DNA of 32,000 bases from Pseudomonadaceae bacterium. Its GTDB lineage: Bacteria; Pseudomonadota; Gammaproteobacteria; Pseudomonadales; Azotimanducaceae. Made by a program: the position numbers and the translations under genes. Location of the stretch: NCBI GenBank assembly GCA_024743435.1, contig JANSWO010000008.1, positions 193,491 through 225,490 on the forward strand. The letters run 5' to 3'. Positions 2,019-17,880 of the stretch are shown one piece after another; within the stretch, counting starts at the first letter, position 1, and every line of letters starts with the position of its first letter. Under the pieces are notes generated by a model that made no database searches, was not told the DNA's origin, and worked only from the letters and a program-made list of their open reading frames with translations.

Positions 2019-2042
2019 CGGCCCGAGACCGTAGCTTTGCGT

Positions 2043-2072: not shown

Positions 2073-2114
2073 TCTTAACTATAAAGAGCTATTCGAGAGA
2101 GTTATTCAAACGAA

Positions 2115-2675: not shown

Positions 2676-2720
2676 TGCGGCACACTAGCGCCGTGGGGGT
2701 GAAACGTCGATCAATCCGGC

Positions 2721-3293: not shown

Positions 3294-3366
3294 AGGCTCC
3301 CAGTACCGCCGCTCGCGGCTTGTCCGGAGAGTATAGAAAGCGCTGAGAATCTCGCTGGCCGAGGAT

Positions 3367-4344
3367 TCAGCCGCCGATGAACTTCATGACGGTGACTTCG
3401 CCCGTAAAATGCAGCGGCTGTTTGTCTGCGAGCGCCATACCCAGAACGTCTTTTAGGCGCTCGCGTGCTTGCTCATCGTCCAGCGTCAGCAAGTCGCGAA
3501 TATCGTGACTTTTGGCGCTCGACAAACAACCGTACAGGCGCCCGTTCGACGACAGCCGCAACCGGGTACAGGAGGAGCAAAAAGGTTCGCTTTCGTTAGC
3601 GATGATGCCGAAGGTGCCACCGGACTCAACGGCAAAGCGCACTGCAGTGGAATCAAACGGCGCATCCGTGCGAGTAAAGGCATGGCGCGAACCGATGATA
3701 TCCAGCAACTCATCCATGCCGAGAAAATCACGCTCAAAGCGCGGGTCATGCTGCAGGTGGCCCATTTTCATGAGCTCGATGTAGCGAAGCTCCATGCCAT
3801 TGCTCAGCGCGTAGTCGAGCATGGGCAGAACCTGATCACGGTTCGCGCTTCGTAGCGGCACCATGTTCAACTTAACGCTGATGCCCGCATCCAGCATTCG
3901 ATCAATACCACGTTGCACGGTTGCCAGGTCACCGCTACGCGCAATGGCTCGAAACCTCTCTGGATCCAGAGTATCGAGGCTGACGTTAATGCGCTTGAGT
4001 CCACTATCGATGATCAGATCCGCTTTTCTATCCAGCAATTGACCATTAGTGGTGAGCGATACATCTCGCAGCGGACGCTGCATGAGGTCTGGCATGAGAT
4101 CGTCAAACTTCGGCGACAACAATGGCTCACCACCGGTAAGACGCACTTTGTCGATACCAGTGGTAGCAATCATCAGATCAACCGCGCGCAAAACCTCAGT
4201 GGCTTCCAGCTCCGCTCGGGCAGGCATCAAGCGCTTTCCATCCGGAACGCAATACGTGCACGCGTAGTTACACGCCGCAGTCAGCGAGATGCGTAGGTTC
4301 GAGAAGCTGCGGCCGTAGCGGTCGCTAATCATGCGCGCGAGCAC
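3367..4344 (-). CDS. moaA: GTP 3',8-cyclase MoaA (radical SAM, molybdenum cofactor biosynthesis)
   Basis: Radical-SAM cluster CNYACTYC, LTGGEPLL, and a C-terminal second cluster region (CSSCTRLRLSSNGRLYGC). The start is either GTG at 4344 or ATG at 4332 (MISDRYGRSF...). Confidence 0.9.
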   Translation of the reverse strand: MLARMISDRYGRSFSNLRISLTAACNYACTYCVPDGKRLMPARAELEATEVLRAVDLMIATTGIDKVRLTGGEPLLSPKFDDLMPDLMQRPLRDVSLTTNGQLLDRKADLIIDSGLKRINVSLDTLDPERFRAIARSGDLATVQRGIDRMLDAGISVKLNMVPLRSANRDQVLPMLDYALSNGMELRYIELMKMGHLQHDPRFERDFLGMDELLDIIGSRHAFTRTDAPFDSTAVRFAVESGGTFGIIANESEPFCSSCTRLRLSSNGRLYGCLSSAKSHDIRDLLTLDDEQARERLKDVLGMALADKQPLHFTGEVTVMKFIGG

Positions 4345-4453
4345 CCATAGGCAAAACTAATGGGTCAGTATGACATGCCCAGCAGATTCAACCAAAACCG
4401 CGATTCTCTTCTCAATTAATCGAAAAATCGTTCGATATCATGCAGATAGGAAA

Positions 4454-4620
4454 CCAGGGGTCAGGACCAGGGGTCAGGACCAGGGGTCAGGACCAAGTGC
4501 CAGGTCCAAGCAGGTCCCCGGTGACTAACGAGTATCTGGTTACTTTGTGGCTACTTTGGACCTGGCACTTGGTCCTGACCCCATTTTTTGACCTGGCACC
4601 TGGTCCTGACCCCATTTTTT
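4454..4620. repeat. composite tandem / inverted repeat element
   Basis: Three tandem 13-nt units CCAGGGGTCAGGA (4454-4492). Perfect 27-bp inverted repeat 4483-4509 / 4556-4582 around a 46-nt loop. Then the 31-nt unit GACCTGGCACYTGGTCCTGACCCCATTTTTT occurs twice in tandem (4559-4589, 4590-4620) with one mismatch. Confidence 0.9.
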
Positions 4621-4710
4621 CAGCTGCCTACGGGCCTTTCAGAGATATCGAGGGGCAAATTCGGGAACCAGATCACTGGCGAATCCGAAATTCTTTGCTT
4701 AACTGAAGTT

Positions 4711-4838
4711 GTCGGCATCGTGATCTCCCCCCTCCCCCAACGAACACGATGACGACAGGGGTGGGTAACCACCCTACATGTGTGACTCCTAACGGAACTA
4801 GCCCGGTGATCTCCCCCCAGTGATCCGGGCCTTTTTTT
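4711..4838 (+). ncRNA. candidate small RNA (three stem-loops, C-rich loops, intrinsic terminator); family not recognised
   Basis: Stem-loop 1 is 4711-4756 (12-bp stem with one mismatch, loop ATCTCCCCCCTCCCCCAACGAA). Stem-loop 2 is 4759-4774 (GGGTGG-GTAA-CCACCC, a GNRA-type loop). Stem-loop 3 is 4801-4830 (GC-rich stem, loop TCCCCCCAGT) followed by T7 (4832-4838). There is no credible ORF. The 5' end and promoter were not determined. Confidence 0.35.
4781..4837 (+). repeat. attL: left copy of the 57-bp direct repeat
   Basis: TGTGACTCCTAACGGAACTAGCCCGGTGATCTCCCCCCAGTGATCCGGGCCTTTTTT is identical to 17342-17398. Confidence 0.85.
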
Positions 4839-4900
4839 GTTCATTTACAGCGTCTTGCACGCATATCATGAACTAGGGAAATCGGCGCCAGGCAACGCCT

Positions 4901-4919
4901 GCCCTACGATACGCCCTAC
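4901..4919 (+). promoter_or_regulatory. phased GCCCTAC direct repeats (candidate integrase arm-type or regulator sites, left arm)
   Basis: GCCCTAC at 4901-4907 and 4913-4919 (12-bp phase). A further ACCCTAC lies at 4771-4777. The same heptamer core recurs in phase at the right arm (17193-17199, 17205-17211). Confidence 0.3.
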
Positions 4920-4933
4920 AGGAGCACACGCTT

Positions 4934-5311
4934 ATGACTACCAAGATTGACGAACTAATCTCCTCACCCAACGAGCCGATGACCGATCTGCTTGTATCCC
5001 TGCTACCTCGCTTACACGGTGGCAAGAACCACCAACTCAACGCCAACCCCGAAGCCCGGAACCGCGCGCTACTCGAAAGCATCATTCAGCAAGTCAGCAA
5101 TGCGCAGCTCCCGCTCGACAGCGTCGCGCAGTCACTAGGCATTCTGCTGGCTACCAGCCAAGCTCACGGTGAAGTGGCGGATTCAGTGGTAATCGACGCC
5201 GGATGGGGAATTCAGTTCCTAGCGGAGCTGTCGAGCGCACTTGAGCACGTTCGCAGCGACGCTCAGAGCTTGCTAGACAACCCGCCAAAGGTCCGGGAGG
5301 TCGCAGCATGA
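4934..5311 (+). CDS. hypothetical protein (125 aa)
   Basis: AGGAG lies 9 nt upstream of the ATG. This is the first gene of three translationally coupled ORFs. No recognisable domain. Confidence 0.6.
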   Translation: MTTKIDELISSPNEPMTDLLVSLLPRLHGGKNHQLNANPEARNRALLESIIQQVSNAQLPLDSVAQSLGILLATSQAHGEVADSVVIDAGWGIQFLAELSSALEHVRSDAQSLLDNPPKVREVAA

Positions 5312-5652
5312 GCACCTCCAAGAGCCCTAGTTTGCTACATCAGTTCAAGTACAACCATGAGCACCTGTCCGCAGAAGAACGAGAAGGTTTCCTAGAGTCT
5401 CTGTGTGAGAGCGATAAACGAGAGTACGTCGAACAAGGCTTGATATGGCTAGCGGATGGCTGGCCGGATCTATTCACCGCCGCGGCGGTGCGAGTTCTCG
5501 AGAAAGCCGGCCGAGCCAGCGTAGATGAAGCTGGCAACGTCTCGCTGTTTGGCGATCTGGAGCCGTACGAAAGCTCGTTTACTAGACTCTACAAGGCAGC
5601 ATTGGAAGATAAGCAAGGCGCAGGGGCGCCAAAGAGGAATGCAAATGGCTGA
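5308..5652 (+). CDS. hypothetical protein (114 aa)
   Basis: ATGA start/stop overlap with the upstream ORF. GGGAGG lies 7 nt upstream. No recognisable domain. Confidence 0.6.
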   Translation: MSTSKSPSLLHQFKYNHEHLSAEEREGFLESLCESDKREYVEQGLIWLADGWPDLFTAAAVRVLEKAGRASVDEAGNVSLFGDLEPYESSFTRLYKAALEDKQGAGAPKRNANG

Positions 5653-5779
5653 ACTAACCCTCGAAGAAGTAACACGCTGGCTAACTGGACTGAGCGACGA
5701 CGTTCGACAGCGGATCGAATCAGCGATCGATGCGGAATACTTGAGGCTATCTCGCTCTAACGAGGCTAGAGAGGACTAG
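5645..5779 (+). CDS. hypothetical micro-protein (44 aa), paralog of 17701..17880
   Basis: The ATG at 5645 overlaps the upstream stop (ATGGCTGA), with AGAGGA upstream. Trimmed from ORF 5525..5779. About 20 of 30 aligned residues are identical to the 59-aa ORF just outside the island (ELTLEEVTRWLTGLSDDVRQRIESAIDAE vs EFTLEEVTAWLAGLSDEARSVIETAIDSE). Confidence 0.55.
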   Translation: MAELTLEEVTRWLTGLSDDVRQRIESAIDAEYLRLSRSNEARED

Positions 5780-6144
5780 CGAGCAAAGTAAGCAACACTT
5801 GCCACCGTAGGATTAGATGACCAGACAATAAGTGGTGTGACAGCCCGGAGAGACGGGCCAATGGTGCCACCCGTAGGCGACGCACTTTTAGATTCGGTCC
5901 GACGATCTGTTGCAAGTTTCGCTTCGCTAAACACTGCTCCAAGGCAGACCGGGATACAAAAGAACTGGCGGTCCGCCCTGTGGGCCGCACAAGACACCTC
6001 GTTGGCCGCGCAACTCCTGAAGTCTTGTACCAAATTACGCCCGATCGATTCACCCGCACGTGGCACGAATCGATCAATAAACCCCTGGAACACAAACTCA
6101 GCCCGGTAGGAACCTGAAAGATACTGCTTCGGCGTCAAGGGCAT
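5776..6144 (-). CDS. hypothetical protein (122 aa)
   Basis: Strong SD (GAAGGAGATAACCCTATG) before the internal ATG at 6144 of ORF 5776..6228. Third-codon positions are G/C-rich in the stretch checked. Competing ORFs in two other frames look less protein-like. Confidence 0.5.
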   Translation of the reverse strand: MPLTPKQYLSGSYRAEFVFQGFIDRFVPRAGESIGRNLVQDFRSCAANEVSCAAHRADRQFFCIPVCLGAVFSEAKLATDRRTESKSASPTGGTIGPSLRAVTPLIVWSSNPTVASVAYFAR

Positions 6145-6370
6145 AGGGTTATCTCCTTCAAAGCTACGACGGGCAGAACATGCCAAGCACCCAAGCTCCG
6201 CAGTCGATGTCCAGAGCCTGCCAATCAAAGAGCATCTAAGGTGGGACGCGAGCTTCTAGATCAATAACACTCACCGATGTAGTCTCAGATTACTGAGCTG
6301 GACCAAGACAGCATTTGCGCTGACCTCGAAAACAGCGACCTTCTATAGAAAGGCCGCAACGGAGAATTGC

Positions 6371-7633
6371 ATGGCCGAAGCCAATGAGTATTTTGCGCAG
6401 CAAAAAACCGATCTCCAGCTTCATGAGAGCCTGCTGCGCTTGCCGACCACCGCCGGAACAAACCCAGATCAAACAACCCTCAACTTGGAAGTGGCTACCG
6501 GCTCAAACACTGCTTTCAAGCACACTGCGTCTGAGGCGTTGGAGAACGAGGTTGCTCTAGGTGTGTTGGCAAGAAACGGCCACTATTTCGTGCGAGCCAC
6601 TCTTGCCGAAACGAATCGGCACCGACTAGTGGTAGATAGGGACGAGAGCGGCTTTGACAAAATTTCAGTATTCCCCGGGCACAATTGCACTCCTGAAGAA
6701 AAGACCCAGTTCATTATTGCTGTCAAGGATGAATTCCCCCCCTATTCACGAAACATGGCCCTCGAAGAGGCGCTAGAACCATCACTGCGCGAATACCATC
6801 TCTATCGCGAAGCCGAATTGGAGAAGCTCAAGGGAATTGTCGAAAACCTACTAAAAGATGGAATCGCGCTACGAACGGCTCTCGACGAAGAGAAAACAGC
6901 GTTTCAGGAACAAACGGCAAATGAGCTCAAGAAACACAAGACCAGTCTAGATAGTGAAAACGAAGCAGCAGTGGCCAAACTTCAGACTCGGACCGCAGAG
7001 CTCGATGAGAGAGAAGAACAATTAGACAATCGAGAATCGAAGCACGTTAGAAGAGAAATACGGAAGGAGCTACAGCAAGAGCTTAGATCTAGGGGTGAAG
7101 AGTTCAATCTGACCAATTCAACTAGGAAAAAGCGTTGGCCAGTAGCAGCCGCATACGGCTTGCTCGTCCTGGCACTAGGAGCCGCAACAGGGGTTTCAGG
7201 CTGGCATCTCTTGGCAGCCCCTACGGATGTACTGGCCAACATACGGTTTGTCACTTCGCTTTTTGGCTTCGCTGGCTCAACCATATTTCTCATTCGATGG
7301 TTCGATTCCTGGTTCCGCAGACACGCTGATGAAGAATTCGAGCTCAAAAGACTCCAACTAGATCTCGATCGTGCCAGCTGGGTGGTTGAGATGGCCATGG
7401 AGTGGAATGACTCTGCGGACAAAGAACTGCCACCTGAACTCGCCACAACCCTTACTCGCGGCTTGTTCACTTCGGGCGAACCTCAGCAAGCTTCATCCCA
7501 TCCCAACGAAGACCTCGCCTCACTGCTCTTGGCTGCCACTGGGCTCAAATTGAACATCCCTGGTGTCGGAGAAGCGACCTTCGATTCGAAGGCGTTGAAA
7601 AAAATTGGTGATACATCAGAAAACACGAGATAG
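6371..7633 (+). CDS. coiled-coil protein with two transmembrane helices (420 aa), unknown function
   Basis: GGAG lies 8 nt upstream. There is a central E/K/R/Q-rich heptad-like segment (LEKLKGIVENLL...REIRKELQQELRSR). It is followed by two hydrophobic helices (WPVAAAYGLLVLALGAATGVSGWHLLAA; FVTSLFGFAGSTIFLIRWF) and a roughly 110-aa tail. Confidence 0.75.
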   Translation: MAEANEYFAQQKTDLQLHESLLRLPTTAGTNPDQTTLNLEVATGSNTAFKHTASEALENEVALGVLARNGHYFVRATLAETNRHRLVVDRDESGFDKISVFPGHNCTPEEKTQFIIAVKDEFPPYSRNMALEEALEPSLREYHLYREAELEKLKGIVENLLKDGIALRTALDEEKTAFQEQTANELKKHKTSLDSENEAAVAKLQTRTAELDEREEQLDNRESKHVRREIRKELQQELRSRGEEFNLTNSTRKKRWPVAAAYGLLVLALGAATGVSGWHLLAAPTDVLANIRFVTSLFGFAGSTIFLIRWFDSWFRRHADEEFELKRLQLDLDRASWVVEMAMEWNDSADKELPPELATTLTRGLFTSGEPQQASSHPNEDLASLLLAATGLKLNIPGVGEATFDSKALKKIGDTSENTR

Positions 7634-7676
7634 CGCGGCGGGACCAATAACCCAAGCAAAGGCCACCCAGACTGGA

Positions 7677-8249
7677 TCAATGCTCAAGATGCCGTCGCTC
7701 ACCTTCGGGGTCCCCGGGCGGCTCTGTCGTTCCCAACCGAACGCCTGCAGAAAAGGTAAGTGTGGCCGTAGCCAGGCTGCTGAGCGCGTCGCTAATTTCG
7801 GTGGCCAATAGCGCTTCTATCTGAGCCTCGCGCATTGCCACAGCGACTGGAGCGGCCTTTGTCGGTATCGACAACAACCGCGCCCGCACTACTGAAAACA
7901 CTTGCTCGAGAGCCAAAGTTACTTCATTTGCTGGCACGAGCTCATCAGCCAACACGCGGGCTTCCAGCGCCACCTTTCGGCGCTGTTCCCGGGCAAGTTT
8001 CGCGCGCTCCTGCGTATAGTCCAGAATCTGTCCATCCTCATCCGTCATCAAGGCCGCCAGGCGCTGACGCACACCCCACTCGAACACAGTGTTTGGATCG
8101 AATTGGTGCTTCGCGCCGCGCCCGCTGCCTCCACGGCGCAAAACGGGAAGCGGGTCTTCTGGTCGATCGCACCACCGCCTCCCAGTACGAGCATCTCTAT
8201 CAAATAGAGCTGCTATCTGATTGATTTCTATTGTTTCTTTGCCGGACAT
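7677..8249 (-). CDS. phage Nu1-type terminase small subunit homolog (orphan)
   Basis: The N-terminal wHTH segment INQIAALFDRDARTGRRW...LPVLRRGGSGRGAKHQFDPNTVFEW aligns by eye with lambda Nu1 (LADIFGASIRTIQNWQEQGMPVLRGGGKGNEVLYDSAAVIKW). The following Y..ER...A helix region also aligns. No large terminase gene is in the window. Confidence 0.6.
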   Translation of the reverse strand: MSGKETIEINQIAALFDRDARTGRRWCDRPEDPLPVLRRGGSGRGAKHQFDPNTVFEWGVRQRLAALMTDEDGQILDYTQERAKLAREQRRKVALEARVLADELVPANEVTLALEQVFSVVRARLLSIPTKAAPVAVAMREAQIEALLATEISDALSSLATATLTFSAGVRLGTTEPPGDPEGERRHLEH

Positions 8250-8374
8250 CCGTAGAGGACCTGATAGCTATTCAACGACTGCAATGCGAATTACCTGCGG
8301 TCTAACTCACAGGAAGGACCCAAACCACCTTAGAACGCGGGACCTATCCAAGCCAAGCATAAATCAGCCACGGT

Positions 8375-8758
8375 CTACAAATCCGACTGCTCCGCGCGCA
8401 CGTTTTCCGCCAATTCCCCAAGGGTTAAGTCAGCGTACCTTTTGGGCTTGGCCCAGATAGACCAAAGCAGAGAATCAACACGACTAAGGAGACGCAAAAT
8501 GGGGTGACGCTCAGGTTTGTTCATACGAACGCTCGACAACACGTAATGCATGCTCGCGGATGCTTCGGTCGGGAAATGCCGCTCAAAATCTAGATCAGAC
8601 AGCGACACTCCAAATTCGGATTGAACTGAAGATAGAAACTCTTCGGCGGTATCTCCAACAAGTTCAAGCTCCTTCACGATAGACGAAGACATCGAAATTC
8701 TCTCTCGATCCACACCGGAGAACTCAGAAGCTAAATCCACGAGTCTTGCTTCGATCAT
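8375..8758 (-). CDS. putative Rhs immunity protein (DUF1493 / ACP-like)
   Basis: Starts 4 nt after the Rhs stop on the same strand. The motif LELVGDTAEEFLSSVQSEFGVSLSDLDFERHFPTE resembles the DUF1493 pattern as I remember it. The gene is markedly more AT-rich than the toxin tip. Confidence 0.65.
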   Translation of the reverse strand: MIEARLVDLASEFSGVDRERISMSSSIVKELELVGDTAEEFLSSVQSEFGVSLSDLDFERHFPTEASASMHYVLSSVRMNKPERHPILRLLSRVDSLLWSIWAKPKRYADLTLGELAENVRAEQSDL

Positions 8759-8762
8759 TACT

Positions 8763-11700
8763 TTAATAATCTCCGATCAAGCAGGTGCCTTCTTCCTCGC
8801 ACTCGCGCTTACAGCGAGAGAAATCCAGCGAATCTTTCAACGCCAGTCCCCATCCTAGATATGGGACGGCTTTACCTGCCGCACGAGCGCCGTCGCGCCC
8901 CAATCTACGGGCCGCTGGGGTAGGAAGCGCCGCGGCTGCTTTGCTCGCCGGGCTGGTCCAAGGACCAGCTGGACCACCGCCAGCAATCCCACCTCTCGGC
9001 TTTCGAACCACTTTTCCCGTAGCCACAGCAGTTCCTGCAAGAGCTGCCTCCTCATACCCAACTACTTCAGCTAAGCATCGCCTAACACATGGCGATGCAA
9101 CAAAGCCAAATTTCTGACCTTGAACGAACCTAGCGGTCGCATTTCGATCACCGGGTCTGATTTGAGTATCACGCGGAGTCCAACTTAACCCGAAAGCGTC
9201 CGTCCTCGAAATAGGGTTGGCCGCGACATAGGAAAATTGATTCAAACCGCCATCAAGCCCGATTGGGTCCGATTGGCTGTATCTACCCAAACTCGAATCA
9301 TAGTCTCGGAAGTTGTTGTAGCTCGAACCAGATCCATCCTCGACTTGCCCCGGAAAGCGCAGCGGCTGATTTATAACGGACGTTACTTCCGTCACGCCCC
9401 CAAATGGCTTGTAGTTAGCGTCCCACGCGACACTTTGAGAACCATCCGAAATCACTTGCGGCGTTCCGAGATGGTCCGAGTGAACAAAGTTCAACGCAGG
9501 AGGTCCAGCCGGGCCACTGCTCTGGGGCACTAGTCTCACTTCACCGACGTACAGATTTCGTCGTTGTGGGTTATTCCCCGCTGTGATTCGCACTACACCG
9601 GTGCCGGATGCAAACGTGTAGCTACCGACGAGATTCCACTGATCGCCATTCGTCGTCTGATCGAATGCTACTTGCGCGGTTCCGCCATCGTGATCGACGC
9701 TATAAACCGCCTGGGTCGCCGGATTGGCCTGTCCTGATGGCCACTTAACATAGACATCATAGGTATCCGTTGCCGGAACCTGGAGATCCCATGTCCCCGT
9801 ATGGACCGCCGACGACGACGTTGGCACGAGGTAGAACGCATCAAGGGTCGTGATACCTCCTGTTGAGCTCTCAACAGTGACGTCCATGTTGCCAGCCGCT
9901 AGAGGGAGCGCAGAGCCATTAGTTCCCCAGATATTTCCACCCTGTCGCAGATTCACATTTACGGTCACCGGACCGTTCTGTAGGTCCAGCGTGATGGGCA
10001 TCGCCGTGGTGTTCTGGTTCGAGGCAACATGAGTCAGGTACGCGTAATAGTTGCCTGCGGCTGGGATGTTGATGGTCCACGTCGCCGTGGCTGTGCCAGC
10101 GCTCGCGGGCGTCGTCAGGTAGTCCGCATTGATCGCCAGGTTGTCGCTCGCTGTCGTCCAACTGCCGGTCAGCACCGCCTGGTCTTCGTCGACCATGATG
10201 CCGCCCGCGGGTGTGTTCTGAGTTCTCTGTCGCGTGTATCCGCCGCTACCGAGATCCTCCCATTGGCTGAGCCCAGTGAACTGAGAACTCGTGTGATCGA
10301 GCACGATCTCCGAGGCTCCTGATCCCGTCGGCGCGGCGACCATCGCCAGGCGCAGCCCGTCCGCAAAGATGTACTCTCGGATTACGACGCCTTGATCGTC
10401 GGATTCAGCGATCAGCTGACCGTCACGATCGTAGTGGTAGTGAGTGGTCGAACCATCCTCGACTTTCACCACCCGCTGGCCGAGCGCATTGAGCGTGTAG
10501 ACCCCGAGATTGCCGGTGCCGTCATCGACGCTCGTCAGCCGGTTACGGTTGTTGTAGCTCAGGGTGCGGCTGGTGCCATCGTGGCGTACGTCGCTGCTGG
10601 TGTTGCCACCGGCGGTGTAACCCAACGTTCGTGTACTCGCGACGCCATTGTCAGTCCTCGACACCGAGGTCAGCCGATTGTCACTCGTCCCGTAGGCATA
10701 GGTCTCAGTTAGGGTATCGGTCCCATCGACGATCGAACGACTGGTTCGGTTGCCAACCGCATCGTAGCCGTAGTCGATGTCGCCGTAGACACCAGTTGCA
10801 TCGGTTAGGCGATCCAGCGCGTCGTAGACGAACGTTTGCGAACGAGCTGAGTCGATATTGTCGGTGATGGCGGTGATGTTGCTGACGCCGTCGTAGGCGA
10901 TTGTGCGGTCGAAGATGGTAGGGGTCGCGATGCCCGTTAGCCGATAGTCATTATCGTAGGTCAAGGTCGCGGTTAAGCCGTTGCCGTAGGTCCAGCCGGT
11001 GAGGCCTCCAAAGGGCAGGTAGCTCATGGACGAGGCGACGTTCTCGACGCTGCCGCCGCTGGCTTGGGTCGTCACACTGCTGACGCGACTCAGCGCATCT
11101 CGAGACAGTGTCACTACCCGCCCTGATGGATACGTCGTCGTGAGCACGTTGTCAGCCAGATCGTAGGTGTAGCTCGTCACATAGGTCTGGCCACCAAACG
11201 TGCGGGTCTCGGTCAGGACGTTGCCGCGATCGTCGTAGGCGTAGGCTGTTGTCCCGCTCACATCCGCCATGGATGTCAGACGGCCAAGACCATTAGTTCC
11301 AGCATCGTAGGTATACGTCACGTTCTCCGACGTGGCCGCTGGATAGGTGATGCTGGTGACTCGTCCCAGGGCGTCATAGGCGTAATTTTCGACCACTCCG
11401 CGAGGATCCGTGGACTGGGTCATGTTGCCCGCGACGTTGTAGACATTCACCGTTGTACCGGCATCGGCGCTTGCTTCCCGAATCTGTCGATCAAGGCCAT
11501 CGTACGTATACGAGGTCACGACGCCGCGAGGGTCCGTGACCTGAACCAGGTTATCCCGGTCGTCATAGACATAGTCCGTGTCGTTCTGAGCGGGATCCGT
11601 CACGGTGATGAGTCGATCGAGCGCATCGAACACGTTGGACGTGACCCGAGCATTGTCGTCCGTCATAGACGTCTGATTGTTGTTCAGATCGTAGTCGTAG

Positions 11701-13934
11701 GTTGTTGACTGACTAGCGCCGCCAATAATCTCTCTCAGCCGAGACAGCTCATCAAATACTCGAGTCTGGCTCTTTCGGATCGTACTGCCAGCATCACGAA
11801 TGACTTCAGCGGTTTGGTTGCCAGCGGCATCGAGCGTGTACTCAATGCGCTCGCCCAGGCTGTTCTCAACAGCCGTCAATCGGTGCGCCGCGTCGTACTC
11901 GTAATCGAGCGTCGAGCTATCGGGCATCGTGATACTGGTGACCTGGCCGACAGCGTCATAGCCGTAGGTCGTGATCGCATCGCCTTGGGCAGACTTGATG
12001 GTGCTCGTCGTCAGCCAGCCGCGCGCGTTGTACGCGAGCTCAGTGACCACATCATTGACGTCTTCGATGGCCGTGGGCAGCCCGCGAGCATCGCGCGAGC
12101 TGATTTCTGTCACCTGCCCCAGGGGATTGGTGGTGGACAGTAAGTCACCGGCGGTGTCGTAGGTGAACGTTGTGACGTCGGTGACATCAGTACGCGGACC
12201 ATCGATCGTCGCAATCAGACCCTGAGCGTTGTAGGTGTAGGTGGTGGTTTGCGAGGTTCCGGTGGTGGTGTAGGGAACCGTCTGTGTCTGTGTGTCCGTC
12301 GTCGTGCGTGTCAGCAGTCGACCTTCGGCGTCATAGGTCATATCGATCGTTTGGCCGGGGCGGACGATCTGTGTCGGTACACGGAAGTTGGAGTGCCAAG
12401 TGCGGGTCTCGACACGCTCATCGGGCGTGCCCACCGCCTCAGTCTTTGTGAGAAGCAAGCCATTAGAATCGAAGTCGTGGTCAGTAACGTTGCCTTCTGG
12501 ATCTGTCTCGAGATCCACGTAGCCGTTCGAATCGTAGGTGCGCGATTGAACCGTCGCACCACACAAGGCGGTGGCGACTCCTTCGGTACTAACGACCCGC
12601 TCGACACCTTGAACATTCTGGGTGGTAAAAATGGATTGCTTACCGAGTGGATTGGTAAGCGTAACCGTCCCATTTGTATTGAATGCCAACGTGTTCTTAT
12701 CAACACCGCCAGCGTGTTCGCTCGAGATCACGCGACCACTCGAATCGTAGTCCCATGTTGCATATCGATCACCGTTCTCGTCGGTGATGCCAGTCAGCGC
12801 ATTCGGAAAAGCAGAGTCTTCGTAGTGATATGTCCGGACAGGATTGTCATTCGAAACCAACGGAGTCTCGTCTGGATACGTAACCGTCTCCAAACGCCCA
12901 CTTGAATCGTACGAATAGGAATACGTGTTCGAAAGCGGATCAGAAACGCTTACAAGCTGATCAGACTGAATGACGACTGAAAGGCTTCGATTCTGGTCAT
13001 CCGTGATAGATGACAGGCCATTGCTATCATAGGTAAGCGTCAACGCCTGCCCTGCTTTGTTGGTAATGGATGTTAGACGACCATCCACGTCGTACTCTTC
13101 GATCGAATCGTCCGGCGTTGTTACAGTCCACCCGTCCACAACGACAGGATTAGGCGACGTAACGATTGGCGTTAACTGAAAGTCGACATCCGAATCAGCC
13201 TCGTAGATCAACACTGGTGAGGTTGCGGCTACGGAGAACCGGTAGCTACGGCCATCGTCCCTAACTACGTCAAGCAATCCATTAAGATTGCGGACTTCAC
13301 GTGAATAGCTCCACCGCCACTCACCTTCTAGGCTTCGGTAGTACCGGTCGAATCGTAGAGGTAAGTTGGTACCGATTGGACGAATATCGGAGTCTGTCTG
13401 TCGTTTACTTCCGGTACCAATCTCCATCGGATTACCCGCGACATCGCAGCTTCCCTTTTCGGGTTTGTCTTCAACCTCGCACGTACCATTTGGCTGAAGA
13501 GCCCATCCGGCGGGGCAACCACTTCCTGCCGCAGAGTTGTACATGAAATAGGTGCTAACCCCCTCGCAGCTGACGCCGGGGTTAGGCGCAGTTACAAAGC
13601 CCCATCCAGAAGATGGACTCGGGTAAGCACCACCCCAATAAGTGTTCACGGCAGCAGCGTTGAGATTGCAGCTACTGACCACATCGGAAGCGGAAGCTTC
13701 CGCTGCTAAGCATGCTGACTGAGCAAGCGATGGCGAATCGTAGTACCCGCCCGAGATGTACACGCCACAAGCAAGTGACGCGTATGAGGTTAGCGAAAGA
13801 AGGGTTAGTAACGAGAGCTTTATCAGAAGTCGACCGCTACTGAGAAGCCAAGCGGACAACTTGTTGCGTTCGGTGTGATCTCTGAGGTTGGAAAAACCAC
13901 AAGAAACCTTCGGAAAACCACCTAGTGTCGACAT
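8763..13934 (-). CDS. Rhs / YD-repeat polymorphic toxin with Sec-type signal peptide and variable C-terminal toxin domain
   Basis: Dozens of YD repeats (YxYDxxGRL/V type) and the N-terminal GNPMEIGTGSKRQTDSD motif. The RHS core end is FVHSDHLGTPQ...PLRFPGQVED...YNNFRDYDSSLGRYSQSDPIGLDGGLNQFSYVAANPISRTDAFGL. The ATG at 13934 has GGAGG 8 nt upstream; the ORF track starts at TTG 13955. The hydrophobic leader is LLIKLSLLTLLSLTSYASLA. Confidence 0.92.
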   Translation of the reverse strand: MSTLGGFPKVSCGFSNLRDHTERNKLSAWLLSSGRLLIKLSLLTLLSLTSYASLACGVYISGGYYDSPSLAQSACLAAEASASDVVSSCNLNAAAVNTYWGGAYPSPSSGWGFVTAPNPGVSCEGVSTYFMYNSAAGSGCPAGWALQPNGTCEVEDKPEKGSCDVAGNPMEIGTGSKRQTDSDIRPIGTNLPLRFDRYYRSLEGEWRWSYSREVRNLNGLLDVVRDDGRSYRFSVAATSPVLIYEADSDVDFQLTPIVTSPNPVVVDGWTVTTPDDSIEEYDVDGRLTSITNKAGQALTLTYDSNGLSSITDDQNRSLSVVIQSDQLVSVSDPLSNTYSYSYDSSGRLETVTYPDETPLVSNDNPVRTYHYEDSAFPNALTGITDENGDRYATWDYDSSGRVISSEHAGGVDKNTLAFNTNGTVTLTNPLGKQSIFTTQNVQGVERVVSTEGVATALCGATVQSRTYDSNGYVDLETDPEGNVTDHDFDSNGLLLTKTEAVGTPDERVETRTWHSNFRVPTQIVRPGQTIDMTYDAEGRLLTRTTTDTQTQTVPYTTTGTSQTTTYTYNAQGLIATIDGPRTDVTDVTTFTYDTAGDLLSTTNPLGQVTEISSRDARGLPTAIEDVNDVVTELAYNARGWLTTSTIKSAQGDAITTYGYDAVGQVTSITMPDSSTLDYEYDAAHRLTAVENSLGERIEYTLDAAGNQTAEVIRDAGSTIRKSQTRVFDELSRLREIIGGASQSTTYDYDLNNNQTSMTDDNARVTSNVFDALDRLITVTDPAQNDTDYVYDDRDNLVQVTDPRGVVTSYTYDGLDRQIREASADAGTTVNVYNVAGNMTQSTDPRGVVENYAYDALGRVTSITYPAATSENVTYTYDAGTNGLGRLTSMADVSGTTAYAYDDRGNVLTETRTFGGQTYVTSYTYDLADNVLTTTYPSGRVVTLSRDALSRVSSVTTQASGGSVENVASSMSYLPFGGLTGWTYGNGLTATLTYDNDYRLTGIATPTIFDRTIAYDGVSNITAITDNIDSARSQTFVYDALDRLTDATGVYGDIDYGYDAVGNRTSRSIVDGTDTLTETYAYGTSDNRLTSVSRTDNGVASTRTLGYTAGGNTSSDVRHDGTSRTLSYNNRNRLTSVDDGTGNLGVYTLNALGQRVVKVEDGSTTHYHYDRDGQLIAESDDQGVVIREYIFADGLRLAMVAAPTGSGASEIVLDHTSSQFTGLSQWEDLGSGGYTRQRTQNTPAGGIMVDEDQAVLTGSWTTASDNLAINADYLTTPASAGTATATWTINIPAAGNYYAYLTHVASNQNTTAMPITLDLQNGPVTVNVNLRQGGNIWGTNGSALPLAAGNMDVTVESSTGGITTLDAFYLVPTSSSAVHTGTWDLQVPATDTYDVYVKWPSGQANPATQAVYSVDHDGGTAQVAFDQTTNGDQWNLVGSYTFASGTGVVRITAGNNPQRRNLYVGEVRLVPQSSGPAGPPALNFVHSDHLGTPQVISDGSQSVAWDANYKPFGGVTEVTSVINQPLRFPGQVEDGSGSSYNNFRDYDSSLGRYSQSDPIGLDGGLNQFSYVAANPISRTDAFGLSWTPRDTQIRPGDRNATARFVQGQKFGFVASPCVRRCLAEVVGYEEAALAGTAVATGKVVRKPRGGIAGGGPAGPWTSPASKAAAALPTPAARRLGRDGARAAGKAVPYLGWGLALKDSLDFSRCKRECEEEGTCLIGDY

Positions 13935-14333
13935 GCTCACCCTCCCTGGTTGCAATGATCGATTGTGTGAACGAGCTGGCTAGATTCATTCACGCTACTC
14001 ACTCGTCAACGACATGAAACAATCACGAACAAGAAAACGCAAGTAGAGATAAATGAACTCTCTATGAAACCGGGTCCGGAATACCACGCAGTGAGTATCT
14101 GCGAAAAGGTCGACAAGGGAACTTCGCTTTCATCTAGTGCGTTTGGCCATGGGCCAAAACGCGCAGGGACTGCCGGTGCTCGTGGACCTCACATATTTTG
14201 ATCATTAGCGGAGTTCCAGCGCGCTCGCCGAAAAATCGCGCGGGAGAGGCTATGCGTGCTTGAGTCGCCAGCCGCTCCCGCGCTTAGTCGCCAAGCGCTA
14301 GCTAGGCGACCCTCCGGGAAAGATCTTAAGAGG

Positions 14334-14454
14334 GTCCTCACAAACGAGTACGGTACGGTCCTCACCAACGAGTATGGCAAACGCTCGCTCGTCCTCACTC
14401 ATGAGGACTGACTACCTTCACAAACGAGTACGGTCCGTACTCGTTCATGAGGAC
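14334..14454. promoter_or_regulatory. iteron-like repeat cluster (candidate island ori or operator)
   Basis: GTCCTCACAAACGAGTACGG (14334-14353). GGTCCTCACCAACGAGTATGG (14357-14377). Palindrome GTCCTCA-CTCA-TGAGGAC (14391-14408). TCACAAACGAGTACGG (14418-14433) runs into the palindrome AACGAGTACGG-T-CCGTACTCGTT (14423-14445) and CATGAGGAC. Confidence 0.6.
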
Positions 14455-14843
14455 GGTGATTTTTCGTGGCACTGCCATTTTTCTAGCGGCAGGGAGCCAC
14501 AGTCGAAATCAAGTCCTTTCGTTTTTGAGACCGCCAGCCAGCCGAGGGCATACAGACTAGGGATGCGCGCACTCGTACGCCCCCCTTGCCTCGTCACCAC
14601 CAACAGTCCACTCGACGTCAGCTGTCCAAGTGCTCGAGCCATCGAAGCTTTGCTGTTAAAACCAAACTCTCGATAGCGACTGTAGGGAAGCGAAATGTTC
14701 CCATTACTATCTGGCCCAAGGTATTCACAGGCCGCCATCATCAGAAGATGTGGCGACCTGCCGGTTAGTTTTTGATACTCGGCGCTGTAGACGACACGTT
14801 TGGGTATCTGACCAAATCGCTCTCGCCTCTTTCTTGGAGCCAC
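14445..14843 (-). CDS. winged-helix DNA-binding protein, possible replication initiator/regulator
   Basis: 132-aa ORF. It has a basic N-terminus and a wHTH-like segment SKASMARALGQLTSSGLLVVTRQGG. Its 3' end abuts the iteron-like cluster. Confidence 0.6.
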   Translation of the reverse strand: MAPRKRRERFGQIPKRVVYSAEYQKLTGRSPHLLMMAACEYLGPDSNGNISLPYSRYREFGFNSKASMARALGQLTSSGLLVVTRQGGRTSARIPSLYALGWLAVSKTKGLDFDCGSLPLEKWQCHEKSPSS

Positions 14844-14849
14844 GCGAGA

Positions 14850-15197
14850 TCAAGGTCTTTGATCGGCAGTTGAAGTAGGCCCGCCGGCTATTCTTGGGAC
14901 TATTTGGTATCGAAGAACACGCGCCGGAGCGGCAAACCGTGTTGGGACAACTTCCCATATCCCCTGAATCTCGTAACCTTTAGCCCGCAGCGTAGCGATG
15001 GTGCTATTCAGCGCGTGATCGCCTAGATCCTCAGCTTCAAAACGATTTAGGGAACCTGCCTCCAGCGCCTCAAGAATGCGTAGCGCTTTCGTGTTCTTTC
15101 GGGGTCGGTTACTATCGAGGGCGTGTTGTTTGGCGACGACACTTCCCACCTCACGATCGTGTAACACTAGCCCCGCATTCGTGCGGGGTATCTCCAT
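14850..15197 (-). CDS. winged-helix (HTH) domain protein
   Basis: 115-aa ORF. ILEALEAGSLNRFEAEDLGDHALNSTIATLRAKGYEI resembles small wHTH proteins of islands and satellites. Its start overlaps the upstream stop (TAATG). Confidence 0.6.
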   Translation of the reverse strand: MEIPRTNAGLVLHDREVGSVVAKQHALDSNRPRKNTKALRILEALEAGSLNRFEAEDLGDHALNSTIATLRAKGYEIQGIWEVVPTRFAAPARVLRYQIVPRIAGGPTSTADQRP

Positions 15198-15430
15198 TAC
15201 GCGGCCCCCTTATCTTGCAGTACGAAAGCTTCGAGATAGTCTCGGGTCGAGAACATGGCAGCGTTGCCCATGAAAAAACTCGGGACCAGATTTAGCCGTT
15301 TTTCATGGCGCCATTGCGTAACAGAGGAAATCCCCAAACTCTCTCGGAGGGCTGTTCGGCGCTCAAACGTGGGATTAAGACCATGATCGGCTACAAGCCG
15401 GTCGATCTTCTCTTCGGTACTGAGAATCAT
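15197..15430 (-). CDS. AlpA-like HTH regulator / excisionase
   Basis: 77-aa ORF with AAGGTGA SD. The segment LRESLGISSVTQWRHEKRLNLVPSFFMGNAAMFSTRDYLEAFV fits the AlpA / MerR-type excisionase layout. Position between int and the replication-like genes is typical. Confidence 0.55.
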   Translation of the reverse strand: MILSTEEKIDRLVADHGLNPTFERRTALRESLGISSVTQWRHEKRLNLVPSFFMGNAAMFSTRDYLEAFVLQDKGAA

Positions 15431-15487
15431 GTATCACCTTACTTTAATGAGGTGATACCAACTGTAATGGTCGATCCCAGGTGGGAA

Positions 15488-15994
15488 TCAATAGGGCTCT
15501 TTAACACCCCCCCTATCGGCGTTTTCATATGAACGCGCAACGGCTTGCGCGAGAAGTGCCGTTACCTGCATCTTCTGAGCGTCATTCAAGTTCGCAGATC
15601 GCTTCATCTCTTTAAGCTTGTCCTTCTTCATTCCGAGCGACCGAGCGATTGGCGCTGTACCGAAAAGTAACGCCAAGCCCGCAAGGATGAACGCACGCCC
15701 TTTTACGAAACGATTGCTACCGCTAGGGTTCTTGAAAACCTCGGTCGGATCCTCCCCTGTCGACATACGGCGGAACATATCAACCAGGTCATCAAGATGC
15801 TCAGCGATCACCTGACTATCGGGATAATCGTGCTCTCTTTCCCTAGCCTGTAGCACCTCCAAGATTCGCGTGTAATTCGAAAGCCGCTTCTTGGAAATGT
15901 GCTGATCCGTAAGCTCCTCTACCGATGAGACCTCATAGGCCTCGAATATCACTTTCACAGCACGATCGGCTGCCGCTTGTTCTTCTTGCCCCAT
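15488..15994 (-). CDS. hypothetical protein (168 aa)
   Basis: The ATG at 15994 has a strong SD (TAAGGAGGCGATTCGATG) embedded in the last 40 nt of int. An alternative GTG at 15958 overlaps the int stop (GTGA). No domain recognised. Confidence 0.6.
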   Translation of the reverse strand: MGQEEQAAADRAVKVIFEAYEVSSVEELTDQHISKKRLSNYTRILEVLQAREREHDYPDSQVIAEHLDDLVDMFRRMSTGEDPTEVFKNPSGSNRFVKGRAFILAGLALLFGTAPIARSLGMKKDKLKEMKRSANLNDAQKMQVTALLAQAVARSYENADRGGVKEPY

Positions 15995-17175
15995 CGAATC
16001 GCCTCCTTATTCGCCCGCCAGCCTTGAACCGTATCTGACCAAAACTCCAGCAGCTCAGCCTTATCCTCTACTCGCAAAGAGTGATCGTAGTGCCGGCCAC
16101 CAGCCGTCTTCCTGCGAGAAGCAGGACGCTCGATCTGATCCACAAGGTCAAAAGGCGCCCCAAGCTCACAGCAATGAGTGTGAAAGGCAGTGCGGAAATC
16201 ATGGAACGTCCACGGTGCAATCTGCGCCCGCTCTGTCATACGGCGTCTGAGGGCTCCACGACTGCCATTGGAGATCTCGCCTGTCCTGGTGAAGAACCAA
16301 TCGCCAATCGGCGGGCAGTCCTCGAGCTGCGCTCGCGCCAGCTCTGGCAATTCAAGTATCTGCTCCACCTGGGTCTTCTGGATTCGGATGCGCCACCGTC
16401 CGTCCACTACATCTCGTCTGCGAATCGTCGACACATCCGACCAAATCCGAAGCGGCACCAACATCGAGAATCGAACCAACTGTTTGTAGGGGTACCGCTC
16501 ATCGCCGGCCGCATCCCAGATAGCAACCATCTCCCGAGGCTCCAGGACGCGATCTCGCACCGCCATGGGGTGGGGTTTCGGAATCCGTGCCAGTGGCGAT
16601 AGGTCGATCAGGGACCACTGCCAGGCGCGCTTAAAGAACGCGGTGAGGCTCGCATGAGCATTGTTCACCGCCGCCCGACCTCCACTGGTTGACCGCTTGT
16701 CTGCCGCAGCGGCACTTTCGACCTCATCAAGCAGCTTCTGACAGTCTGAGGGTGCGATGTCCCGGATATGGTGTCGATCCCACCGGTTTCCGATTCGCCG
16801 GCGCAGGTATCGATAGATCTCCTGGGATCGCGGCGCGAGCTTAGCGACGTGTCTGGCTTCGTAGCGTTCCCAGACGTCTGGAAACATCACCGCGTCTGGA
16901 TATGGAGCAAGACCAGCTTTAACTCGGCGCCGCACCTCTTCGGCCGCTTCACGCGCCTGAGAAAGCCCCATAGCCTCACCAGAGCCATGGTAATACCCAA
17001 TGGTGCGCATGCCTGCGCCGCGCAGCTGAAGCTCCCAAGCAAACAAGCTGCGACTGCTAACGCTCAGATAGAGCCCAGATGAGCCCTCGTCCTTGTAGTA
17101 GACCTTGCCTTTCCGCGGTGGTTGGAGCTTGCGGAGTTTGGCGTCTGTCTTAAACCGCCCTAGTACCGTTGGCAT
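15955..17175 (-). CDS. int: tyrosine recombinase / integrase (P4-type, N-terminal arm-binding domain)
   Basis: N-terminal DUF4102-like KLRKLQPPRKGKVYYKDEGSSGLYLSVS. C-terminal catalytic region with HDFRTAFHT and ...GGRHYDH (tyrosine). It is adjacent to attR. Confidence 0.9.
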   Translation of the reverse strand: MPTVLGRFKTDAKLRKLQPPRKGKVYYKDEGSSGLYLSVSSRSLFAWELQLRGAGMRTIGYYHGSGEAMGLSQAREAAEEVRRRVKAGLAPYPDAVMFPDVWERYEARHVAKLAPRSQEIYRYLRRRIGNRWDRHHIRDIAPSDCQKLLDEVESAAAADKRSTSGGRAAVNNAHASLTAFFKRAWQWSLIDLSPLARIPKPHPMAVRDRVLEPREMVAIWDAAGDERYPYKQLVRFSMLVPLRIWSDVSTIRRRDVVDGRWRIRIQKTQVEQILELPELARAQLEDCPPIGDWFFTRTGEISNGSRGALRRRMTERAQIAPWTFHDFRTAFHTHCCELGAPFDLVDQIERPASRRKTAGGRHYDHSLRVEDKAELLEFWSDTVQGWRANKEAIRWGKKNKRQPIVL

Positions 17176-17189
17176 GTATTGAAACCGCG

Positions 17190-17259
17190 CTTACCCTACG
17201 CCTTACCCTACAAAGGCATTGAAACGTACTTAAACAGGATTTAAGGGTAGTATCTACCC
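17190..17259 (+). promoter_or_regulatory. direct and inverted repeats upstream of int (candidate arm-type or operator sites)
   Basis: CTTACCCTAC at 17190-17199 and 17202-17211 (12-bp phase). Palindrome GGGTAG-TAT-CTACCC at 17245-17259. Confidence 0.3.
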
Positions 17260-17341
17260 GTGAACAACAAAAAGGCTGGTTTTCAGAGGTTTGAGATCGG
17301 GCAAGCATACGTTTTGAAACACAGTGAAATGCCTAATTTCC

Positions 17342-17398
17342 TGTGACTCCTAACGGAACTAGCCCGGTGATCTCCCCCCAGTGATCCGGGCCTTTTTT
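17342..17398 (+). repeat. attR: right copy of the 57-bp direct repeat
   Basis: Identical to 4781-4837. Includes the terminator-like hairpin and a T6 tract. Confidence 0.85.
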
Positions 17399-17404
17399 AG
17401 GTCA

Positions 17405-17660
17405 ATTTTGAATTCGCTCGCAAAGCGAGCGCATTCAAAAATGACCAGATTCAAACCTCGAGAGAGCGACAGAGCATGGCCAAGGCAGTGCGAAGCACAG
17501 CCTGCCATGTCTCGAGAGCGTCCATCCCCTATTTTGAATTCGCTCGCAAAAAAATGACCAGATTCAAACCTCGAGAGAGCGACAGAGCATGGTCAAGGCC
17601 GTGCGAAGCGCAGCCTGCCATGTCTCGAGAGCGTCCATCCCCTATTTCGAATTCGCCTCC
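17405..17660 (+). repeat. tandem structured repeat (126 bp + 113 bp + 17-bp partial third copy)
   Basis: Copy 1 is 17405-17530 and copy 2 is 17531-17643. They are nearly identical apart from a 13-bp insertion in copy 1 and a few substitutions. A partial third copy is at 17644-17660. Each copy holds a long imperfect hairpin centred on GCAGTGC-GAA-GCACAGC. Confidence 0.9.
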
Positions 17661-17700: not shown

Positions 17701-17880
17701 ATGAAAGCCCAACCAGCGCAACCCACCGAATTCACCCTCGAAGAAGTGACCGCCTGGCTCGCGGGCCTCAGCGATGAAGCTCGATCTGTCATCGAAACCG
17801 CGATCGATAGTGAGCTGGCGAGAAAGCATGAGCAGCAGCGCATGTCAGCTGAAAATCGCCATGAGGGCTTGACGCACTAG
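17701..17880 (+). CDS. hypothetical micro-protein (59 aa), paralog of island ORF 5645..5779
   Basis: Read by hand, because it falls below the ORF-track cut-off: MKAQPAQPTEFTLEEVTAWLAGLSDEARSVIETAIDSELARKHEQQRMSAENRHEGLTH. AGGAA lies upstream. Its stop overlaps the convergent ligase stop in CTAG. Confidence 0.5.
   Translation: MKAQPAQPTEFTLEEVTAWLAGLSDEARSVIETAIDSELARKHEQQRMSAENRHEGLTH

Follow-up and report, generated by a model that had tools for sequence, protein, structure and literature searches.

A 12.5-kb integrative island with an orphan small terminase and an Rhs toxin gene in an uncultured marine Pseudomonadales bacterium, a possible satellite of the Gram-negative PICI type

Can an Rhs toxin gene be carried by a phage satellite? 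The question is raised by a block of genes lying between two perfect direct repeats in the genome of an uncultured marine Pseudomonadales bacterium, known from a metagenome-assembled genome (MAG; assembly GCA_024743435.1). The window analysed is the whole stretch of 32,000 nucleotides at positions 193,491 to 225,490 of contig JANSWO010000008.1, and positions given for the island and its flanks refer to it. A preliminary description, made from the letters of the window, had read the block as a phage-satellite-like island in which an integrase, an AlpA-like gene, a replication-like module and a small terminase accompany an Rhs toxin cassette; the open reading frames (ORFs) it had used are all present at the expected places. 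We have compared the block, gene by gene, with related loci and with known families of mobile elements. It is a 12.5-kb site-specific integrative element, and the reading which we favour, with modest confidence, is that it is a variant of the Gram-negative phage-inducible chromosomal islands (PICIs) with Rhs as its cargo.

The boundaries and the attachment site

The repeats which bound the block are identical over 57 bp, as had been stated in the preliminary description. The left copy, attL, is found at 4781-4837 and the right copy, attR, at 17342-17398. A repeat search showed that this identity is the first part of a 66-nt direct-repeat pair (4781-4846 and 17342-17407, 95% identical overall); the chance expectation for an exact repeat of 57 nt within 32 kb is about 1e-26. 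The interior, 4838-17341, measures 12,504 bp, and the GC content is 55.0% between the repeats compared to 57.7% in both flanks.

An empty site with one copy of the repeat, which relatives had been expected to show, was indeed found. A scan of 185,579 species-representative genomes with GACTCCTAAYGGNACTNGCCCGG as query gave 18 loci with one copy each, all of them from uncultured Pseudomonadales or related Gammaproteobacteria except one record labelled Limisphaerales (L139). At 17 of the 18 loci the order is moaA (minus strand), a small RNA (sRNA) gene (plus), a murF-like gene (minus) and sppA (plus), and the sRNA terminator directly adjoins murF with nothing intervening; in the 18th (L129) too little sequence follows the sRNA on the contig for the arrangement to be judged. 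This empty arrangement is that of L127, the nearest relative found (MoaA 89%, SppA 84% and MurF 70% identical), and of 16 further genomes. The 3' end of the sRNA in L127 is nearly identical to the 57-bp repeat. In blastn, window positions 2115-4836 align with L127 2287-5017 and positions 17342-17471 with L127 4961-5093, whereas 4838-17341 has no counterpart in L127. Since both flanks of the window align across L127 4961-5017, both repeat copies fall on one attB, and attL maps to this single copy. The flank before attL is the body of the sRNA, and the sequence following attR (AGGTCAA...) is the one following attB in L127; by this match attR is the displaced original 3' end of the sRNA gene. The block is a discrete, site-specifically integrated island.

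It should be considered whether the assembly itself has created this picture. The source is a MAG, in which a circular element or a foreign contig might have been misjoined at a shared 57-bp sequence, and an independent Logan contig spans the island only and breaks inside the repeats. Such an artefact is nevertheless very improbable, as the flanks after attR and before attL match the surroundings of attB in L127 and a related integrase is integrated at the same site on an independent contig (L003, see below). The length of the Logan contig (L004, from SRR18498042) argues in the same direction: its 12,564 bp correspond to window 4808-17371, which is the 12,504-bp interior plus 30 nt of each repeat, the length expected from a k=31 graph for a true two-copy repeat. 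The contig was also considered as an excised circle, an interpretation that was rejected because its ends, at 4808 and 17371, lie 30 nt into each repeat, where a k=31 graph breaks. Its ends confirm independently that the reads contain the repeat in two copies.

No tRNA or tmRNA is present as attB. On the plus strand the repeat contains a G+C-rich hairpin followed by a T-run. Rfam at the gathering threshold gave no match in the window; in a permissive scan positions 4640-4828 (plus strand) matched RgsA (RF00628) over the full length of the model (1-194) with 29.8 bits and E 1e-5, the gathering score being 88.4. The gene suggested by this match and by conservation extends over 4640-4837 (plus strand) and ends with a seed, GUGUGACUCCUAA, and a terminator hairpin; both the ACUCCUAA seed and the terminator lie within the 57-bp repeat. 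When the 19 sRNA regions (the window and the 18 loci) are aligned they share an invariant GTGTGACTCCTAA seed, the terminator and a hairpin with a C-rich loop, and covariation in this alignment is modest (compensatory pairs, 3 of 18). These similarities indicate that attB is the 3' end, that is seed plus terminator, of a conserved RgsA-like sRNA, and that the sRNA between moaA and the murF-like gene is effectively an unannotated variant of the family, scoring below the Rfam threshold for RgsA. Phage attachment in sRNA genes is known, e.g. at the Salmonella sdsR locus as mentioned in PMC3333887 (citing Balbontin 2008). What the two cases share is the use of an sRNA gene for attachment by phage-like elements; the bacteria and the integrases are others, and so is the sRNA family as far as compared.

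The enzyme expected to recognize this site is a tyrosine integrase of 406 aa encoded by int at 15955-17175 (minus strand). It matches Arm-DNA-bind_3 (4.7e-8) and, weakly for a catalytic domain, Phage_integrase (4.9e-5); the catalytic residues R243, H325, R328 and Y363 are invariant in the alignment of its clade. This clade is rare: a search of 5.8 billion proteins gave two relatives at 42-44% identity, to which can be added one 1-kb metagenome fragment at 48%. A scan of IMG/VR with the single protein gave nothing, and a search of IMG/VR and metagenomes with the alignment otherwise gave nothing but P4-type integrases of a generic kind (about 25% identity). The 42% relative (P0008) is located on L003 in the order sppA, murF, a 3' fragment of the sRNA (…GACTCCTAATGGTACTTGCCCGG…CCGGGCTTTTTT, 9778-9826) and int, followed by a 171-aa ORF, a homolog (43%) of the 77-aa ORF of the island, a primase fragment (phrog_6088, 4e-43) and the end of the contig. 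MurF and SppA of that host are only 42-45% identical to those of the window. As P0008 adjoins the same sRNA fragment in a host with such divergent MurF and SppA, site specificity appears to have been kept across distant hosts, and the alignments suggest that the clade targets the 3' end of RgsA-like sRNAs. Relative to the Gram-negative PICIs both the integrase clade and an sRNA 3' end as attB are new.

The surroundings of the site have some peculiarities of their own. A long imperfect hairpin lies at 4453-4616, between moaA and the promoter region of the sRNA. It is built from a 13-nt unit (ACCAGGGGTCAGG) present three times in tandem, together with the inverted partners of these units, and yields spurious microRNA-precursor matches in Rfam; it may be regulatory or similar to a repetitive extragenic palindrome (REP). 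Just outside attR, between the att site and a small ORF, there is a tandem duplication (17437-17656) with a 107-nt unit and 96% identity; L127 aligns only at its start and shows no sign of a duplication. The small chromosomal ORF itself (17701-17880; L127 5179-5331) is present at the empty site of L127 and absent from the 16 more distant genomes. It has a paralog inside the island, an ORF of about 42 aa in the left arm (5651-5779, plus strand), seen as an 81-nt repeat (D2) with 73% identity to 17701-17880 and in tblastn with 67% identity to the chromosomal homolog of L127. The paralog could stem from a past imprecise excision which captured flanking DNA, or an older island at this attB could have left it behind. 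A scan for promoters and terminators gave results at or below the shuffled expectation.

The small terminase and the replication module

The gene which most clearly connects the island to phages is located at 7677-8249 (minus strand) and codes for a protein of 190 aa with a match to phrog_57, 'terminase small subunit' (7.6e-23), over residues 5-167. Its closest homologs, P0002 and P0004 (51% and 47% identical), are small terminases (TerS) encoded directly upstream of a GpA_ATPase/GpA_nuclease large terminase (TerL) and a lambda-type portal. A scan of IMG/VR with the single protein gave nothing, and the alignment-based scan gave 80 loci; in 76 of these the TerS match is followed, at a distance of about 150-250 bp, by the start of a GpA-type TerL, mostly with a portal next, three are cut by a contig end, and a single one (L006) has room for a TerL yet is without it. 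In Pfam the protein has no match, even at E <= 10, and a PDB sequence search with the TerS profile returned noise only; when the family was compared with Pfam one member reached Phage_Nu1 (PF07471) at E 0.054 and two matched DUF1441. The Nu1-type call of the preliminary description can thus be kept for the gene position and the GpA-type partner, but not for the Phage_Nu1 profile, which the island protein leaves unmatched. The protein is a genuine small terminase, orphaned here. No trace or remnant of TerL or portal was found in the window by tblastn, nor any capsid, tail or lysis family among the island ORFs with Pfam and PHROG, which agrees with the earlier view of a small terminase without other virion genes.

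In the exceptional locus L006 (IMGVR_UViG_3300037346_000573, 1312-6428) the neighbours of the TerS homolog are a P4-type integrase, an ORF of 210 aa, another which is AlpA-like and a helicase (phrog_2373), and an upstream ORF resembles, by appearance, the end of a capsid gene. L006 is a candidate for a second TerS-bearing satellite.

The invariant residues of the TerS family are in the C-terminal half, and the N-terminal part with the helix-turn-helix (HTH), i.e. the DNA-binding part, of the island protein diverges from phage TerS. By analogy with lambda Nu1, a satellite TerS which keeps the contact to the large terminase but reads another DNA site would show such a divergence. Ordinary divergence among phages would lead to the same expectation equally well.

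An orphan terS could also be a leftover. According to this explanation the island is a decayed lambdoid prophage from which TerL, head, tail and lysis genes have been deleted, so that int, a few early genes and terS are left, and Rhs was acquired later. The TerS homologs are phage genes, and a 125-aa ORF in the left arm (4934-5311, plus strand; no Pfam match) matches a phage protein family (phrog_14904, 4e-7). On a lambda-type prophage map, however, int and Nu1 are oppositely oriented, whereas int and terS are co-oriented in the island. Furthermore the repeats are perfect over 57 bp and the integrase is intact, no TerL or portal pseudogene is left behind, profile searches detect no repressor/cro, Q, O/P or lysis families, and the order int, X, HTH, rep, ori is the one seen in the PICI-like islands L221, L223 and L003. 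We consider a prophage remnant improbable.

The replication part of this gene order is best recognized by comparison. A 132-aa protein encoded at 14445-14843 (minus strand) has no profile match, and its homologs suggest that it is a replication initiator with predicted origin binding. The putative origin (14304-14454) contains iterons of about 21 nt (GGTCCTCACAAACGAGTACGG), four of them direct and one inverted, and a CCTCTTAAGATCTT-type motif; the stretch of iterons (14333-14454) includes the stop codon of the gene. A 57% identical homolog, P0021, is found on an ENA contig (L221) in a PICI-like island with the order int, 184-aa ORF, Phage_AlpA, P0021, further ORFs, an HTH protein of 150 aa with weak likeness to TerS and a major head protein of the HK97 type. 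In an island of Cupriavidus oxalaticus (L223) a 39% homolog lies between primase and helicase, the order being int, group II intron, HTH, primase, Rep homolog, helicase, further ORFs and major head protein. The third homolog, 30% identical, is annotated as 'replication protein O' in PP003913.1 (L222). Each of the four rep genes has its own iterons at its 3' end (window 14333-14454, L221 2338-2448, L222 4162-4297, L223 12389-12589), and the CCTCTTAAGATCTT-type motif beside them is common to the window and L221. The location of the origin directly 3' of the initiator gene is a hallmark of PICIs (PMC6092414), and since this arrangement is kept in four out of four elements, the assignment of the 132-aa protein and the iterons to a Rep-ori module is well supported by comparison; the replication-like module with iterons had been suspected already in the preliminary description. 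The pattern of PICI origins, two iteron sets flanking an AT-rich region, is not clearly resolved in the window, and no primase or helicase domain was detected in any island ORF by Pfam, PHROG or NCBIfam. Alignment scans with the Rep and 77-aa families gave nothing.

The island L223 (NZ_CP032520.1, 391.5-403.6 kb) is itself a PICI-like element of about 12 kb which splits a tripartite tricarboxylate transporter substrate-binding (TctC) gene on a Cupriavidus megaplasmid.

Next to the rep gene, at 14850-15197 (minus strand), lies the gene for a 115-aa winged-helix protein (Pfam HTH_39, 2.6e-6). The 115-aa and 132-aa ORFs share the reading frame with one stop codon (14850-14852) between them, and they were considered as one broken Rep of 250 aa. 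This was rejected because the homologs of the 132-aa part are genes of their own (130-155 aa), which makes a broken fusion less likely than two genes. An AlphaFold 2 model of the 132-aa protein, from two sequences, had a predicted local distance difference test (pLDDT) score of 43.8 and was not used.

The 77-aa ORF which follows (15197-15430, minus strand) had been labelled AlpA-like. By profiles the label fails: neither alone nor as a family of six members does the ORF match anything in Pfam, PHROG, NCBIfam or the PDB sequences. The AlphaFold 2 model predicts a winged HTH (pLDDT 87.5), for which the best PDB matches in Foldseek are RacA, MerR-family proteins and the excisionase TorI (template modelling score about 0.5-0.6, E > 0.07). 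The same slot is occupied in L003 by the 43% homolog and in L221 by a true Phage_AlpA. Based on predicted fold and position the protein would be a MerR/excisionase-type winged-HTH protein in the AlpA slot and a candidate regulator or excisionase; the AlpA-like call is plausible but unproven. Between this ORF and int is a 168-aa ORF (15488-15994, minus strand) without match in Pfam, PHROG, NCBIfam or PADLOC; unannotated ORFs take the same position in L003 (171 aa) and L221 (184 aa).

The Rhs cassette and the left arm

The largest cargo gene, at 8763-13955 (minus strand), codes for an Rhs protein of 1730 aa from a TTG start, or 1723 aa from the ATG at 13934. Pfam recognizes RHS_repeat (1.1e-81, 12 stretches), the RHS core (4e-7), DUF6531 and two Golvesin_C domains. 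After a DPIGL motif at aa 1563 come about 140 C-terminal residues without family match. The N-terminus has a hydrophobic signal-like segment, judged by eye from the translation, and there is no PAAR or VgrG domain in the protein. Downstream, starting 4 nt after the Rhs stop, a 127-aa ORF (8375-8758, minus strand) approaches DUF1493 (8e-4, 20.5 bits versus a cutoff of 21); it is a putative immunity gene, a role assigned from its position only. YD/RHS repeats, a core ending in a DPxGL-type motif, a variable C-terminal domain and an immunity gene downstream mark Rhs polymorphic toxins; the protein agrees with this by its repeats, its DPIGL, its unique C-terminal region and the small ORF behind it, and it is intact. 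Rhs, the 127-aa ORF and terS share one orientation, and the statement that Rhs with its small downstream gene forms the main cargo holds.

The two Golvesin_C domains (about aa 1209-1478), which separate the YD-repeat shell from the RHS core, have been inserted as compared with the homolog of P. aeruginosa, where they are absent. This insertion might be an externally displayed binding module.

The preliminary description found an Rhs cargo unfamiliar for a satellite, and a search of the literature to hand likewise gave no paper linking phage satellites with Rhs. The nearest precedent for Rhs on a satellite-like island is PP003913.1, which among 50,697 phage records is the only one to encode a homolog of the 132-aa Rep and also gives the best match (37-40% identity) to the Rhs in the phage database. 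The record, 'Pseudomonas phage vB_Pae_U1', is a region of 16.2 kb in P. aeruginosa ST773 which adjoins tRNA-Thr and was predicted by VIBRANT (PMC11381890). Like the island it carries int, a Rep of this family with iterons and an Rhs and lacks virion genes; it also encodes an HTH_17 'cox' protein. It differs in having no annotated terS, a primase, an Rhs split into two ORFs without Golvesin_C, and a tRNA site. We considered it as a packaged Rhs satellite and rejected this, because the paper presents a prophage region predicted by software, which alone defines the boundaries, and particles were never shown (PMC11381890). The record (L222, 1-16187) is probably a satellite-like or integrative island which has been mislabelled as a complete phage genome.

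The left arm is made up of plus-strand ORFs for which, as had been noted before, no role can be assigned: the 125-aa and the ~42-aa ORFs mentioned above, a 114-aa ORF (5308-5652) without match in Pfam, PHROG, NCBIfam or PADLOC, and a 420-aa ORF (6371-7633) convergent with terS. The last has weak matches only (Pfam, PADLOC, NCBIfam), which were attributed to its coiled-coil composition; judged by eye, the translation suggests a coiled-coil protein in which there are two hydrophobic segments, and the gene is likely accessory cargo. Apart from such weak matches PADLOC found no defence family.

A satellite or an island without helper

How does the island compare with the known families? PICIs are defined by five core components, int, a regulator (AlpA, MerR or Stl), pri-rep, capsid morphogenesis and terS, and elements with only three of them are called unreliable (PMC10085698). 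In Gram-negative PICIs the core genes from int to terS are all on one strand (PMC6092414), and they are all on the minus strand in the island, which in addition has the integrase, the small terminase homolog and an iteron origin 3' of the initiator, and is without tail, holin, portal, connector and TerL genes. A primase-replicase module and a capsid-morphogenesis or interference gene are missing. Profiles detect no capsid, Ppi, Cpm, Sid or Psu-like families, the ORFs without family match remaining possible carriers. The architecture is PICI-like (unidirectional, origin 3' of rep, orphan terS, no virion genes), and the island cannot be filed as a typical member.

The comparison with individual Gram-negative PICIs, EcCICFT073 and PmCI172 (PMC6092414, PMC10085698), gives the same picture. 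Alike are the size of about 12 kb, the specific att site with int at one end, the order int, small gene, HTH regulator, initiator and 3' iterons in one direction, a terS without other virion or lysis genes, and accessory genes beyond terS. The differences are that the island has the 132-aa initiator and the HTH_39 protein in place of pri-rep, that it has no capsid-morphogenesis gene, that its regulator is not recognizable by profiles as AlpA, MerR or Stl, and that 5.2 kb of Rhs is located between origin and terS. L221 and L223 share with it the homologous initiator (57% and 39%), element-specific iterons and the unidirectional order int, (X), AlpA/HTH, rep, and L221 also has the CTCTTAAGATCTT-type motif. 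They differ by an HK97-type major head protein gene, the absence of Rhs, other integrases and other att sites; L223 adds a primase and a helicase, and the 150-aa weakly TerS-like protein of L221 is not homologous to the TerS of the window.

Other families fit less well. The P4-like set, psu-delta-sid operon, epsilon/ash and alpha primase-helicase (PMC10085698), was not detected by profiles, and of the PICI/P4-like logic put forward in the preliminary description the PICI part, with int, orphan terS and rep-ori, can be retained and the P4 part cannot. PICMIs (phage-inducible chromosomal minimalist islands) are defined by int, AlpA (PF05930/PF12728) and a primase (DUF3987/DUF5906), a location next to fis and no terS (PMC10803314); the island has a terS, no primase, no AlpA profile match, and its att site in the sRNA between moaA and murF. 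The set of the capsid-forming PICIs (cf-PICIs), own capsid, portal, head-tail adaptor/connector and TerL, is absent. With the Staphylococcus aureus pathogenicity islands (SaPIs; background in PMC6092414) the island would share a satellite TerS redirecting the large terminase of the helper and a toxin cargo, superantigens in their case, beside the packaging genes. SaPIs differ in lineage, in having the Stl repressor with divergent transcription, pac headful helpers and capsid-remodelling genes, and in that their toxins are directed against the host of the bacterium and are not interbacterial Rhs proteins.

An explanation without helper phage has to be weighed at this point. The island could be an integrative element which excises, replicates as a plasmid-like circle, moves by routes such as mobilization, generalized transduction or transformation and serves in defence or competition, its TerS-like protein being a repurposed HTH regulator or an anti-phage decoy which sequesters the large terminase of an incoming phage. 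Neither a cos/pac site nor a helper has been identified, genes for capsid morphogenesis or known interference functions are lacking, profiles detect only int and terS, which is below the reliable level of de Sousa et al. (PMC10085698), and PP003913.1 combines the same Rep family and Rhs with no annotated terS. On the other hand the TerS is full length with an end-to-end match to its PHROG profile, it retains the conserved C-terminal half, and its family is otherwise almost always coupled to TerL. The Rep family is also found in islands with a major head protein, and an orphan terS together with int and rep-ori is the signature by which PICIs are recognized (PMC10085698, PMC6092414). We regard the explanation as possible but rather unlikely.

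For the satellite of the PICI type, which we prefer, the following sequence of events can be proposed. The rare integrase would insert the element into the 3' end of the RgsA-like sRNA gene, and the att copy of the element would regenerate the end of the sRNA. Excision would probably be aided by the 77-aa MerR/excisionase-type protein; the 132-aa initiator would then bind the adjacent iterons and the circle would replicate. The TerS would recognize a site on the element and recruit the GpA-type large terminase of a lambda-like helper, whereby island DNA, probably as multimers, would be packaged into helper virions and transduced. With Rhs and the putative immunity gene between origin and terS, and co-oriented with terS, toxin and antidote would spread together by phage-mediated transfer. 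Such a lifestyle is plausible and is strengthened by the comparison with other elements, including that of the Rep family, which occurs in two unidirectional islands of the type int, HTH, rep and major head protein (L221 and L223).

Several observations weigh against this proposal. No primase-helicase and no capsid-morphogenesis gene is present, only two of the five PICI components (int and terS) are detectable by profiles, and the regulator call for the 77-aa ORF fails in every profile search. A TerS without TerL recurs only in the island and in L006. The families of int, the 77-aa protein and Rep have very few members, and the searches gave no other full-length island of this type. A unit of 12.5 kb is far from a lambda-like headful, and there is no gene for remodelling the capsid size. 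The cos/pac-like site envisaged in the preliminary description did not appear: in a search for short matches shared with 55 phage terS upstream regions the island did no better than the chromosomal flanks. No helper phage, excised circle or packaged form has been identified, and the MAG source leaves no strain to test. We propose only tentatively the full version, i.e. that the island is a functional PICI-type satellite of lambda-like phages with GpA terminase in marine Pseudomonadales, in which a new integrase clade and a minimal replicon are combined with an Rhs cassette, co-oriented with terS, replacing the capsid-morphogenesis/interference slot. If this is true, helper infection would transduce, and possibly co-express, an interbacterial weapon. 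The island may be one of a wider, unrecognized set of Rhs-carrying phage-like islands that includes the vB_Pae_U1 region.

Satellites carry virulence toxins and anti-phage defence systems. If the island is packaged by a helper phage, pairs of polymorphic toxin and immunity genes could spread at transduction frequencies, and phage epidemics would be tied to shifts in bacterial competitive hierarchies. The detection of satellites by profiles would probably miss the island at present, because two of five PICI markers are detectable. A new integrase clade appears with a conserved attachment site, the 3' end of an sRNA, which is used in hosts with no more than about 42-45% identity between their housekeeping proteins, and the Rep-iteron module appears as a family of minimal replicons common to PICI-like islands of Gamma- and Betaproteobacteria.

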